A DNA stretch of 53,435 bases, from IMG/VR virus record IMGVR_UViG_3300021495_000007; one strand, written 5' to 3'. This document shows positions 47,423-50,912 of the stretch, in pieces. The notes under the pieces were generated by a model. That model had not been told where the DNA came from and searched no databases. It was given only the letters and a program-made list of their open reading frames with translations. Position numbers and translations under genes: made by a program. Source of the DNA: a virus. The number at the start of each line of letters is the position of its first letter. Position 1 is the stretch's first letter.

Positions 47423-47843
47423 ATGCCTCTACCTTGACATGAACTACTGCTGATTGTAATATCCATTTCTCAATAGGAGAATATTCTAAATCTATACCGC
47501 CATTATAATCTAATTCATACCATTTGGAATCATCATGACGTAATGTTCTAAGCTTTTCCATTATAGCATCTAAATCTTCTAATAACCGTGTACCTCGATA
47601 ATCAAATGGTACTCTTGTGACTAAATGAATTTCTATTTCTATAATTGCATATTCATCTTCTTCTAATATTCCACCTCTATAGACAGGAGTTATTCTGGTT
47701 GGTACAATAAAACACACAGGAAAGAAATCAGTAGCAGTAGGAAACCTTAAAAAATGCATTACCTTATAGTTACTAAGAGCATCATCGATTTCAGTCTTCA
47801 ATATATCCATTACCAAATTTAATTTATCAACTAAAGAAGTCAT
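47421..47843 (-). CDS. Probable tail terminator/completion protein
   Basis: 140 aa upstream of the tube genes; FPVCFIVP...IEIHLV beta pattern; inferred from synteny. Confidence 0.55.
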   Translation of the reverse strand: MTSLVDKLNLVMDILKTEIDDALSNYKVMHFLRFPTATDFFPVCFIVPTRITPVYRGGILEEDEYAIIEIEIHLVTRVPFDYRGTRLLEDLDAIMEKLRTLRHDDSKWYELDYNGGIDLEYSPIEKWILQSAVVHVKVEA

Positions 47844-48169
47844 TTATTAACCTTTCTAATTTTATATATCTCACCTATAGAATTCATAGCCTGTTTGAGA
47901 TAAGATTCGCCTACACGTTTGAATTCACCTGCAGTTGCTGGCACTTCAGTAGTAAACCCGCCTGTACTAATTGTAAATAAATAAGCTGTATAGAAATTAA
48001 CAGCTGCATTTTTGGCATCAGAACTCACCTCACTCAAAACATCAGACGGATAAAATGTATTTAACCACACATTAGCGAGCTCTTTTAAATATATTAACTT
48101 CTCTTCTTGCTCACCAACATTGAGTTCTAAAATCTGCCTAATCACCTCAATATTTCCATACTCACTCAT
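47840..48169 (-). CDS. Probable head-tail adaptor
   Basis: 109 aa helical (AKNAAVNFYTAYL); inferred from synteny. Confidence 0.5.
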   Translation of the reverse strand: MSEYGNIEVIRQILELNVGEQEEKLIYLKELANVWLNTFYPSDVLSEVSSDAKNAAVNFYTAYLFTISTGGFTTEVPATAGEFKRVGESYLKQAMNSIGEIYKIRKVNK

Positions 48170-48477
48170 TTTTTCCTACTCGGATTCACATAAAAGAATT
48201 TTTCTTCATAAAAATGATAGCCTTCTGATGTACCATGTATTATCGCATAATAACCTCCTTGTTGGAAAGAGGCATTTGAAAGATAAACATCAAGAGAGTA
48301 TTCACCTGTTGCATTATGATCCATGGGTTTGTTTTCAATGATTTTATTGTTATCGAAATCTACAATATCAAGATAAATTTCATCAGGATCCGCTAACTCG
48401 TTATTCGTATCACGAACTTCTATTTTGAATGTTATACTATCACCAATCTCATACCTTTTTTCGACCGTTCTAATCAC
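48166..48477 (-). CDS. Ig-like virion protein
   Basis: GDSITFKIEVRD...DPD...GEY...GYY Ig-like pattern; GTG start at 48477 after AGGG. Confidence 0.6.
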   Translation of the reverse strand: MIRTVEKRYEIGDSITFKIEVRDTNNELADPDEIYLDIVDFDNNKIIENKPMDHNATGEYSLDVYLSNASFQQGGYYAIIHGTSEGYHFYEEKFFYVNPSRKK

Positions 48478-49537
48478 CCCTACATTTATGAACAAAATGT
48501 AGTAAACTATCTTCGGGAGTAATCAGTCTGAGGGACGGATTGCTCCTCGCTACTCTCTCGCCGATATTCCATGCCCCTACCGTGTCAGCTGCCTCCGTAT
48601 AACCACAGCTGACACAGCTGAACACTTCATCACGCCGACGATTCGCTCTACTCGTGAACCCACACTTAGGGCATTTGAGGGAGCTAAATGCAGGATTCAC
48701 TTTATAAAGGCAGAAACCTTCCACCTTTCCCATCTCTTCTAATTTATGAGCGAGATGAGCATAAGCCCAATTATTGTTTAGTCTCCTGAATCGTCTACTT
48801 CTTCCTCTCTTGCCTTTGAATGACAATTTCTCTACTGCAAAATCACAACCCGGATACGCTTCCACTATTTCCTTCGCTATCCTGTTCAGTCCTTGTTTAT
48901 ATGCCGATAATCCTTTATACTTTCGCCATTTAGTTCTTATCCTCAAATCTCTCAGCTCGTCCCCGAATCTTTGCCCGTCTGATACTACCGCAGGATGATT
49001 CATTCCCACATCTATACCGACCACCTTAGTATTATGTGATTTTTTCTCTGCGATCTCAAAGAAAAAAGTGGCATAGTAATCATTCCCCTTTCTTTTTATC
49101 TTAAAGGATTTTCTTAGTTTTCCTCTTTCTAATGCTTTATTAAACTCCCTATGCTTCTTACAAGGTAGTTTCAGCCTCTTTCCTTTTCTCAGACTAATAA
49201 CATTTAGCCAGAGGTCGAATTCTTTTGTTTGCAAATCGGAGATAATATAAGCGGAACACTCGTTGAGGTCTATCTCATTACCGCTATAACAAGGTCTCTT
49301 TTTCTGCCCTATCTTTTTCGCACCCTTTACGATTTGCCATGCCTTTACCGCTGCATCTCTTATCAGCCGCCCGCCTCTTGTATATTCTTTTGGTGGATAA
49401 CTCCCAAAGGAATTTTTAAATACCCAAAATAGCTTTATGAAATGATTAACTTTATCAGTCCAAAACGATATTAGCTGATTAAGCTCTTTCTTCTTGCCTG
49501 TATTTGGGTATATCTTTAGTTGATATGACTTTATCAT
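48470..49537 (-). mobile_element. tnpB: Solo TnpB (IS200/IS605 or IS607 superfamily RNA-guided nuclease), no tnpA
   Basis: RuvC I VGIDVG, II AVEKL, III ADTVGAWNI; Zn finger CPKC/CVSC; subterminal hairpin CTACATTT-N7-AAATGTAG 48480-48502; GC higher than flanks. Confidence 0.9.
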
Positions 49538-49538
49538 C

Positions 49539-50912
49539 TCACTCTCGCTCTATTGTTTCTATATTTATGCTAATATTGAATTTTTTAATATCAATAGTGA
49601 GATATTTAACAAGAGCCTTAGACCTCTTCACAGTTGTCAGGATAGGAGCAAATAACAGAGGAGCAGTAAGCGAATACTCATAAACCATTTGGATCAGAGG
49701 CACAAAAGCAGCTTCAGTTGAAATTGTTAGTATGCCTTTGGTTATACGTTCACTACTATACGTATCTTCAAGTGGCATCAAAACTAAATCTTCTAACATG
49801 CTTTCAAGTGTAACTTTAGAAGCTGTACTAAGAATCTGACTGAATCTGATATTAGAAGTAATGCTTGATATATGATTTAAGAATAATTTTAAAGGTACGT
49901 GCAAATCTCTAACAAAACTACTTAATGTATTAACTGTTAAGTAATAATTAATGAAGGTATCAAATACTGAGATTAAATTTGGATATATACTAAGTGGAAG
50001 AAGAAACAGAAAAGAAGATTGAAAATCAATATGCGGTTTTAAACCCAAAGATAAATAAATATTGAGATAATCAGTAGGAACAATGATATGTAGCTTAAAC
50101 AATAGAGACAAAGAACTAAGTACATTTCTAACAGATGCGAATCGAAATTGGAATTGAAGCGGCATTAGAACCAATAAAGAAGTAGAGATGATTTCTTCCC
50201 ATGCAGGATAAGCATAATAATTTTCAGCATCAACTACCGGTTTTATTGAATCAATTATGCCTTTTTCATATTTATAAGACAAAAAAGGATGAAGATTATA
50301 AGGAGTTAGAAGAAAAAAGAGTAAGGAAGATTCAAATTCATTAGTGAAAGAAAAATCATATACTAAATCGAAACGAAGAAGAGATTCAAAGAATTTTAAA
50401 CACTTGTAGTCTAATTTAATAGTTTTTGAAATTAATCCTTCATTTAGAAATTCATAGAATTCGTCACAATTAAGAATGAACTGTAGATAGATATGTTCAG
50501 GAGGCAACCATGATGGAAATGCATAATCGTTTTCGCTTCTAACAACTGGTTTAATAGTATCTGAAATAGTTTCACCATAAGTGTATTGAATAAAAGGATA
50601 GAGAAGAGGAGAAGAAATTAATAAATCACTATCAATTAAATCAAGGATATTAGCATGAGCATCGAGAAAGTTTAACGTGTTAGGCGTAAAGTATTCATTA
50701 GTAATAGGGAAAGAAGGAGAAAAAGAAACTGGGATGGTGAGACAAATATCAGAAATTGGAACTGCAAATTGACCATAAATACGATTATTGGCACAAACGG
50801 TAGCTTTGAACGTATCAAAACGAGAAAGAACACTCTTTAACGATGGAGCTTCTTCATAAACTACCGGGGGTAGAAAATTATCCATTCCGATGACAGTCTT
50901 TTCTAAAGACAT
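49539..50912 (-). CDS. Putative virion protein, Phe/Leu/Ser/Pro-rich with internal repeat
   Basis: 457 aa in the structural operon; duplicated LxPF...Y...DxIKPVV..EN.YA.P.W segment. Confidence 0.65.
   Translation of the reverse strand: MSLEKTVIGMDNFLPPVVYEEAPSLKSVLSRFDTFKATVCANNRIYGQFAVPISDICLTIPVSFSPSFPITNEYFTPNTLNFLDAHANILDLIDSDLLISSPLLYPFIQYTYGETISDTIKPVVRSENDYAFPSWLPPEHIYLQFILNCDEFYEFLNEGLISKTIKLDYKCLKFFESLLRFDLVYDFSFTNEFESSLLFFLLTPYNLHPFLSYKYEKGIIDSIKPVVDAENYYAYPAWEEIISTSLLVLMPLQFQFRFASVRNVLSSLSLLFKLHIIVPTDYLNIYLSLGLKPHIDFQSSFLFLLPLSIYPNLISVFDTFINYYLTVNTLSSFVRDLHVPLKLFLNHISSITSNIRFSQILSTASKVTLESMLEDLVLMPLEDTYSSERITKGILTISTEAAFVPLIQMVYEYSLTAPLLFAPILTTVKRSKALVKYLTIDIKKFNISINIETIERE

Follow-up and report, generated by a model that had tools for sequence, protein, structure and literature searches.

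Organization of the tnpB locus

The window considered here, meaning the whole 53,435-nt stretch of IMG/VR virus record IMGVR_UViG_3300021495_000007, is a 53-kb tailed-virus genome with 33% GC that encodes a tape-measure protein, DUF2341/LamG fibre-like proteins, and NrdD. Its minus strand carries a tnpB open reading frame (ORF) of 355 amino acids (aa) at 48470..49537, which runs from ATG 49537-49535 to TAG 48472-48470 and lies between two virion genes, namely an upstream gene of 457 aa (49539..50912, minus strand, from the ORF list) and a displaced immunoglobulin (Ig)-like gene of 103 aa (48166..48477, minus strand). Along this strand, the upstream stop TGA (49541-49539) is followed by a single G and by the ATG that opens tnpB, and the Ig-like gene is opened in another frame than tnpB by GTG 48477-48475 (MIRTVEKRYEIG...). 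A hairpin (ACATTT..AAATGT) stands before GGGGTGATTAGAACGG in the element. The genomic relatives of this TnpB are confined to Woesearchaeota and Methanosarcinales metagenome-assembled genomes, which agrees with an archaeal tailed virus as the nature of the window; a search of IMG/VR with TnpB matched no relative.

The protein matches the Pfam family Cas12f1-like_TNB (PF07282, 7.7e-14; RuvC and zinc-ribbon C-terminal domain) and the PHROG 'transposase' (1e-32), and a PDB search returned Cas12f/TnpB structures at 1.6e-9 to 3.8e-4. Across an alignment of 19 homologues, the RuvC triad, assigned from motif position and not from structure as D176 (GIDVG), E236 (FAVE), and D318 (ADTVGA), is invariant, as are C289/C292/C308/C311 of the intact CxxC..CxxC zinc ribbon. 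With its catalytic triad intact, the protein is unlikely to be a nuclease-dead repressor of the TldR type.

Empty sites and the captured start codon

Three related viral contigs, L001, L002, and L003, lack tnpB, and each has the Ig-like gene in its native form of 100 aa starting MVEKRYEIG. The empty site reads ...GAGTGA-G-ATG-GTT-GAA-AAA in L002, ...CAAGATGGTTGAG in L003, where the upstream and Ig-like genes overlap, and ...GAGTGA-A-ATGGT-ATG-GTC-GAG in L001, the closest relative of the window with flanks 96–97% identical. Since these relatives carry the native ATG at the same position (TGA-G-ATG-GTY, the native second codon being GTC or GTT), the tnpB ATG (49535..49537, minus strand) is confirmed as the native start codon of the virion gene, as had been proposed in an earlier note made from the sequence of the window alone. 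The empty allele reconstructed in that note, ATGAT|TAGAACGGTC with a ATGATTAGAACGGTC start (ATG ATT AGA ACG GTC), occurs in no relative, a discrepancy that the note itself had named as speaking against its model. The real empty site is ATGG|TCGAA, and the ATGG of the relatives corresponds to ACGG in the window.

A 5-nt tandem duplication, ATGGT-ATGGT, was observed at the exact insertion point of L001 (4027-4036), with its upstream ATG out of frame. An origin of this duplication as an excision or cleavage scar was considered and rejected, as it is predicted neither by IS607 excision at GG nor by TnpB cutting 15–21 nt away.

Limits of the element and loss of its left end

About 12 copies in unrelated contexts, encoding homologues with 83–88% protein identity and including the full copies L005, L069, L071, and L073, set the limits of the element. 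The full element of ~1220 nt starts at (A)|TGGTGATAAC and finishes at ...GGTGATTAGAACGG|, beyond which the flanks share no homology; the tnpB ATG is preceded by a left end of 147 nt, which contains an imperfect palindrome (GGATATGAT...ATCATATCC). In the window, BLAST against the empty L001 and comparison with the full copies delimit an inserted unit of ~1070 nt (48465..49534, minus strand, with a junction ambiguity of 1–3 nt), an IS607-like tnpB-omegaRNA element without the 147-nt left end. Its right end reaches ...GGTGATTAGAACGG, the last position being 48465. The terminus ACGG (48465..48468, minus strand; core GG 48465-48466), where the homology between copies stops, stands in place of the native ATGG and is retained in relatives as low as 40% identity. 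Copies from unrelated contexts all share TAGAACGG, and the whole of it, together with the TAG stop and the GTG, is therefore element and not flank, contrary to the earlier proposal that the right flank donates the tnpB stop. TGAT does occur at both ends, as described in that note, but it does not mark the limits, as the copies share sequence to ...GGTGATTAGAACGG; at the 3' end of the element, it is part of a 12-bp omegaRNA helix.

In the six viral copies (window, L004=L067, L063, L064, L065, and L066), the whole left end is gone. They align with the full element only from 8 nt before the tnpB ATG, and the junction lies within the ATG itself. The window has neither a tnpA nor a left end, just as first noted. 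A loss of the left end via a TGATAA direct repeat was rejected, as it would yield ATGGTGATAAAG, which is not observed; only ATG microhomology fits. Other deletion derivatives comprise the protein-less mini-elements L078, L079, and L080=L081, which combine ~130 nt of left end with the final 255–283 nt, and L077, in which ~13 nt of left end is joined to the final 134 codons. A scan of IMG/VR for the exact right-end pattern gave 56 matches, all by chance and none with tnpB. Between the window and L004/L066, both lineages without a left end, the ratio of nonsynonymous to synonymous divergence (dN/dS) of TnpB is 0.21, demonstrating purifying selection on the protein after the element became immobile.

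Several further observations concern the element ends and their derivatives. The motif GGGCAGAGCGA occurs twice in the left end (L005:4069-4082 and 4140-4153), and the viral target has AGAGCGAGAG (window 49544-49552, minus strand) 8–10 nt ahead of the GG core; a recombinase might bind this word and thereby treat the viral site as a pseudo-target. A second, different TnpB/Cas12-like ORF of 337 aa, apparently without the C-terminal zinc ribbon, lies 1.1 kb upstream of the truncated element on the 63.5-kb contig L077 (L077:871-1884). On the 4-kb contig L078, the degenerate left-end start ATGCGGGGATGAGCG is found twice (19-33 and 1646-1660), which suggests two mini-element copies or a partial duplication.

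Insertion on start codons

When ATG-G is placed directly before the right flank, 10 of the 12 independent sites yield an in-frame ORF of 45 aa or more (virus 100 aa, L005 62, L006 194, L069 160, L073 480, L078 226, L077 143, L070 45, L079 56, and L080 51), against 0 of 22 control frames, all of which stop within 29 codons. The question raised in the earlier note, whether related tnpB insertions also sit at start codons, is thereby answered in the affirmative. At the remaining two sites, L071 and L068, the insertion lies 16–25 nt upstream of a start, an ATG with a Shine-Dalgarno sequence. The displaced gene is gatB in L073, with position 1 of the Pfam GatB_N profile at residue 4, and an amino-acid kinase gene in L078, with position 1 of the AA_kinase profile at residue 2. 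A Shine-Dalgarno sequence precedes the ATG in most left flanks, for example GGAGGTGATTGAAAAATGG. Assuming that ~3% of ATGG sites are co-oriented starts, a share of our own estimation, the probability of at least 8 of 12 start-codon insertions is ~3e-10.

The captured ATG reads in frame through the left end into tnpB in L069 and L006 (404 and 392 aa), and the ORFs from the captured start measure 130 aa in the mini-elements L079 and L080 and 138 aa in L077. In L073, the left-end frame finishes with AAATGA, overlapping the tnpB ATG. Five independent deletions, namely the viral 147-nt deletion, a 36-nt deletion in L006, and those of L079, L080, and L077, preserve the frame from the captured start to the element TAG.

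At its other end, the element supplies a substitute GTG (48475..48477, minus strand) that is in frame with the displaced gene in all six viral copies, in keeping with the earlier note. The tnpB stop overlaps this GTG (GTGATTAG), and in L084 the overlap is a classic ATGA. Read in the frame of the displaced gene, the right end is ATG TCG GGG GTG ATT AGA ACG G|. In the window, a 1-nt deletion leaves the GTG as the usable start, and in L004/L066 a TAG two codons upstream excludes an earlier start, so that the GTG is the sole canonical one. A native Shine-Dalgarno/start region elsewhere in the window (GGTGATTAGAAATG, 3528-3541, plus strand) differs from the right end GGTGATTAGAACGG at 2 positions only, and the right end seems to imitate a site of translation initiation, with ACG in place of ATG.

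A full element on the gatB start (L073:1445-2651) and a mini-element on the kinase start (L078:1646-2052) were found on apparently cellular archaeal contigs, and it looks as if the insertion must be tolerated in such housekeeping genes.

omegaRNA, predicted guide, and motif

RNAalifold delineates an omegaRNA-like scaffold overlapping the 3' end of tnpB (48465..48724, minus strand), the part kept by the mini-elements L078-L081 (last 255–283 nt). Over the last 260 nt to the terminus, the consensus has 78 pairs, 98.5% of the cells are paired, and compensatory double changes occur in 6 pairs. The covariation score was reached in 0 of 500 shuffles, slid controls fall to ~40% paired, and the sequence of the window itself folds at z = -3.18. 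In the terminal helix (helix 7; CUGAUUACUCCC paired with GGGGGUGAUUAG), the 5' arm CTGATTACTCCC (48515..48526, minus strand) has a CG-to-UA double change in 4 sequences, and the 3' arm GGGGTGATTAG (48470..48480, minus strand), conserved in all copies, includes GGGGTGAT, the substitute GTG, and the tnpB stop TAG, leaving AACGG before the flank.

Based on analogy with the IS607 protein CboTnpB (PMC10690162), the guide is predicted to be the next 16–20 nt after the scaffold, TCGAAAAAAGGTATGAG, which takes in codons 2–7 of the virion gene. The predicted guide template/target TCGAAAAAAGGTATGAGATT (48445..48464, minus strand) lies directly 3' of the right end, covers codons 2–8 of this gene, and occurs only once in the window. 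The motif beside the element makes (A)TGG the putative transposon-associated motif (TAM), replacing the (A)TGAT and the target TAGAACGGTCG assumed earlier. The L004/L066 flank equals the L001 target over 16/16 nt adjoining ATGG, and the L004/L066 guide and the L001 target are predicted to be a cleavable pair.

Between the most closely related viruses, pairwise differences in the Ig-like gene are concentrated in its first 21 nt, which hold the predicted target (2/4, 2/8, and 4/8, all synonymous; positions of the window, L001, and L082). This concentration may reflect guide/target turnover. Across all seven viral sequences, an excess of variability in the 20-nt target is not significant (7/20 vs 68/277, p = 0.30).

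Lateral spread among viruses

One orthologous site is filled in the window, L004/L066, L063-L065, and L082 and empty in L001-L003. Synonymous divergence (dS) between the window and L065 is 0.014 in tnpB, compared with 0.24 in the upstream gene, 0.35 in the Ig-like gene, and 0.53 in the next gene. The corresponding values for L004/L066 are 0.148 in tnpB, 1.05–1.12 upstream, 0.64 in the Ig-like gene, and 0.85 and 0.41 in the next genes. Counted in nucleotides, L065 differs at 5 positions of the 1073-nt unit and 38 of 590 flanking nt (Fisher 5e-13), and L066 at 55/1073 inside and 86/590 outside (Fisher 1.5e-10). The edges of the low-divergence block lie no more than 2 nt from the element in the comparison with L065, and L001, the closest relative of the window by its flanks (dS 0.14–0.26), is empty. 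Considering the low tnpB dS, the coincidence of the edges with the element, and the empty closest relative, the unit has very probably moved laterally between related viruses. The viral tnpB copies are 95–100% identical to each other and 84–88% identical to the cellular ones and share one junction, suggesting one capture and one loss of the left end followed by spread. The homing-like behaviour envisaged in the earlier note gains from this presence/absence polymorphism and lateral spread, while the cleavage of competitors stays conjectural.

A close parallel is the intronless homing of the free-standing homing endonuclease genes of T-even phages (Seg, Mob). There too, a polymorphic nuclease gene stands between conserved virion genes and is less diverged than its neighbours, and the prediction is that it cuts the allele lacking it in co-infecting viruses. 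The differences are that an RNA guide and a TAM, and not a protein, would recognise the target, that no flank co-conversion is visible whereas the islands of homing endonuclease genes have fuzzy edges, and that the insertion here is interwoven with the signals for translating the neighbour gene.

Family assignment

The element ends in GG and has neither terminal inverted repeats nor a target duplication. Full copies are arranged as flank|TGG...ACGG|flank, and ATGG|TCGAA fits a GG core. The left flank carries TGG in 8/8 cases and ATGG in 7/8, and every right end reads ACGG. Among relatives, the nearest to encode a transposase is P0076 (40% identity, right end GGTTAGAAACGG), whose MerR-helix-turn-helix/resolvase tnpA lies directly upstream, and the distant relatives L074 and L083-L086 also finish with ...ACGG, with a Shine-Dalgarno-like GGAGG ~8 nt upstream. 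IS607 elements end in GG, lack terminal inverted repeats and target site duplications, and insert after G-rich motifs (review PMC13565253). The GG termini, the contrast of flank TGG with right-end CGG, and the tnpA of P0076 argue for IS607 rather than for the ISDra2-like IS200/IS605 frame of the earlier note. Of the features of IS200/IS605, a Y1 tnpA is lacking and the flank carries TGG in place of an AT-rich motif, although the left end does hold an imperfect palindrome.

In CboIStron, an IS607 element of C. botulinum, the integration site and TAM is TGGG, the scaffold ends in UCGG, and the right-end TCGG prevents self-cleavage (PMC10690162). The present element resembles this CboTnpB IStron (Zedaveinyte et al., PMC10690162) in its GG termini without inverted repeats or target duplication, in a putative TAM, here (A)TGG, that would equal the integration motif, in a right end of the form xCGG that departs from this putative TAM at position -3 and would hence protect itself, in a guide predicted to come from the 3' flank, in an omegaRNA overlapping the tnpB 3' end, and in a probable means of making the insertion harmless to the interrupted gene. 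It differs in that the close copies have no tnpA, the viral copies have no left end, the host is archaeal, and no Rfam IS607 omegaRNA model matches. Moreover, no group I intron is present in a unit of only 1.07 kb, and its silence would be translational, by a captured and a substitute start, instead of relying on splicing.

The IS200/IS605 TnpB proteins of ISDra2 and Geobacillus (Karvelis 2021, PMC8612924; Meers 2023, bioRxiv 10.1101/2023.03.14.532601) are alike as RNA-guided RuvC nucleases with a guide from the flank and a TAM in the left flank; they favour the retention and spread of the element that encodes them, and spread between plasmids independently of TnpA is reported. They are unlike the element in the window in their AT-rich TAM (TTGAT), Y1 TnpA, single-stranded-DNA transposition, and hairpins at both ends, as opposed to G-rich IS607-like ends and a start codon as target. 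The phage-borne, nuclease-dead TldR repressors (Wiegand et al., PMC10705468) share the state of a virus-immobilised TnpB derivative that lacks transposon ends and tnpA and keeps its omegaRNA, but here the D/E/D triad is intact and the predicted guide corresponds to the neighbouring gene in relatives and not to a promoter of the host.

Proposed mechanism

Taken as a whole, the locus is best explained by a start-codon-capturing IS607-like TnpB unit that spreads by RNA-guided homing, with a probability of about 0.55. This joint figure includes the assignment of window 48465-49537 (minus strand) to a derivative, lacking the left end, of an archaeal IS607-type tnpB-only element; it is termed IS607-like, the transposase that counts as a criterion of the family being absent.

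The element family would integrate at (A)TGG, practically at the gene-start ATG|G and in the same orientation as the gene. The host start would then read into the element, through the 49-codon left end in full copies and straight into TnpB in viral copies, and translation would end at the TAG in the right end, whose sequence may imitate an initiation region (GGRGGTGAT, TAGA, and ACGG for ATGG). The displaced gene would probably be re-started at the in-frame GTG by translational coupling of termination and reinitiation, with MIRT replacing M. The final ~260 nt of tnpB fold into the predicted omegaRNA, the scaffold ending in ...AACGG and the flank TCGAAAAAAGGTATGAG probably serving as the guide. 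The TnpB-omegaRNA complex would recognise (A)TGG plus a guide match, a combination present only in element-free relatives because the filled allele has ACGG. Cutting of an element-free co-infecting virus, followed by repair from the filled genome, would copy the unit without TnpA. Such non-restorative homing is a published concept with plasmid evidence (PMC13565253). Synthesis-dependent strand annealing without end degradation would leave the flanks unconverted, and the 16–20 nt adjoining the insertion would have to match the guide in any case.

A role of TnpB in driving the spread is suggested by the intact nuclease and RNA under selection, by the presence of ATGG beside a guide match only in empty alleles, and by the predicted cleavable pair; homing as the cause of spread is held at roughly even odds. 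A wider reading, by which an archaeal IS607-type TnpB lineage has specialised on start codons and its left-end-less viral derivative has become a TnpA-independent RNA-guided gene drive among co-infecting archaeal viruses, is a tentative one to which slightly less than an even chance is given.

Several points weigh against this explanation. Co-conversion of flanking markers was not seen, the first flank differences lying at -1 and +2 relative to L065 and at +5 relative to L066. From +2 onward, the flanks of the filled viruses fall into three types, and each type also occurs in an empty lineage, so that at least some transfers crossed a seed mismatch between guide and target. A window-type guide would fail to pair with a target of L065 type at two seed positions (2 and 9), and simple TnpB-driven copying does not account for the passage of the unit between flank types. 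On the translational side, the frame through the left end is not kept in L005 and L078, and the substitute GTG is part of a conserved RNA helix and could be conserved for that reason rather than as a start. The putative TAM is derived from only 8 left flanks, which are start codons as well, and this makes integration specificity and survival selection inseparable. As for the family, no tnpA was found in the window or at any locus of at least 84% identity, and the IS607 label is drawn from the end motifs and one relative of 40% identity. A cmscan of 47500-50500 at E<=1 gave one chance snoRNA match only, with no Rfam intron or omegaRNA family, including the IS607-type omegaRNA (RAGATH-18).

Alternative explanations

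An unlikely but serious alternative is spread by ordinary or site-specific recombination without TnpB cleavage, TnpB being kept for another benefit or hitch-hiking. Crossovers could fall in the conserved stretch with which the upstream gene finishes, or at the right-end GG core; in the second case, an IS607 serine recombinase of the host might use as substrates the right end and the ATGG pseudo-site that an empty virus offers. The right block boundary lies exactly at the GG terminus, each virus keeping its own flank from +2, and IS607 recombinases use a GG core and TGG-type targets (PMC10690162). The final 31 nt of the upstream gene, which could host the left crossover, are identical in all viruses compared, even between the window and L004/L066, where dS of this gene exceeds 1. 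The viruses are also generally mosaic, and relative to L063/L064 the dS is 0.13 in the upstream gene and 0.00–0.01 in tnpB. However, a serine recombinase normally needs both ends and the left one is absent, the purifying selection on an intact nuclease and RNA is left unexplained, and an empty closest relative beside filled distant relatives is typical of a driving element.

Domestication of an immobile TnpB-omegaRNA as a viral weapon that destroys element-free competitors (exclusion), or as a DNA-binding regulator, appears improbable. It would account for the conserved RNA and a dN/dS of 0.2 despite the lost left end and for a predicted guide that matches only the orthologous site of relatives, and homing endonucleases can kill competitors too divergent for conversion (PMC13565253). 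Against the regulator stands the intact catalytic triad, which speaks against a TldR-type repressor; exclusion alone leaves the near-identical tnpB in diverged backgrounds unexplained, although exclusion and homing are compatible.

A slow-evolving passenger inherited vertically, or an assembly artefact, has nothing on its side except the one identical junction in six viral copies and is already contradicted by tnpB synonymous divergence 3- to 30-fold below that of adjacent genes, by the closest relative without the unit, and by the occurrence of the same arrangement in at least 6 contigs from at least 5 samples. Least credible of all is an IS200/IS605 (ISDra2-like) element bounded by TGAT, with (A)TGAT as TAM, TAGAACGGTCG as target, and a stop taken from the flank. 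Deletion between the two TGAT copies does give an open frame, and full copies have a subterminal imperfect palindrome in their left end, but the empty alleles read ATGGTC, TAGAACGG recurs in every copy even where the contexts are unrelated, full copies start 147 nt farther upstream beside TGG, and the nearest tnpA-bearing relative is of IS607 type.

Significance

The natural role of TnpB, the ancestor of Cas12, is still being worked out, and published roles comprise restorative homing after TnpA excision and silence via group I introns. This locus provides natural filled and empty alleles in wild archaeal viruses of a unit that can no longer transpose, yet has spread. The start-codon-capturing, homing TnpB unit proposed here would be a natural case of TnpA-independent homing, so far known from theory and laboratory plasmids only. 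If it holds, the element borrows the ribosome-binding site and ATG of the host gene and returns a substitute start, so that even essential genes (gatB) can harbour it without effect. What IStrons achieve by splicing would here be achieved by translation, which may explain persistence in compact genomes and essential genes. In practical terms, the locus yields a small archaeal TnpB (355 aa) whose scaffold end is defined and whose candidate TAM is short and of the TGG type.

No description of start-codon targeting by IS607/TnpB was found in a literature search, whose incomplete coverage makes this no proof of novelty. Neither the systematic ATG|G placement that uses the host start and returns a substitute start nor a left-end-less unit spreading between wild archaeal viruses with block edges equal to element edges was found described. 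TnpB-omegaRNA, the logic of IS607 ends, mini-elements, and homing into co-infecting phages are already known.

Neighbouring virion genes

The upstream virion protein gave no Pfam or PHROG match and no tblastn match to GenBank phages. The Ig-like protein matches PHROG 18294 (4.8e-5), its gene has a dN/dS of 0.03–0.06, and an IMG/VR scan with it returned three relatives only, all already in the comparison set. The upstream gene is hypervariable, with 457 aa in the window vs 545 aa among the L002/L004 homologues, dS >1, and dN/dS of 0.3–0.5. Its last ~50 nt are almost invariant, synonymous sites included, perhaps as an island of recombination or as a signal to the gene downstream.

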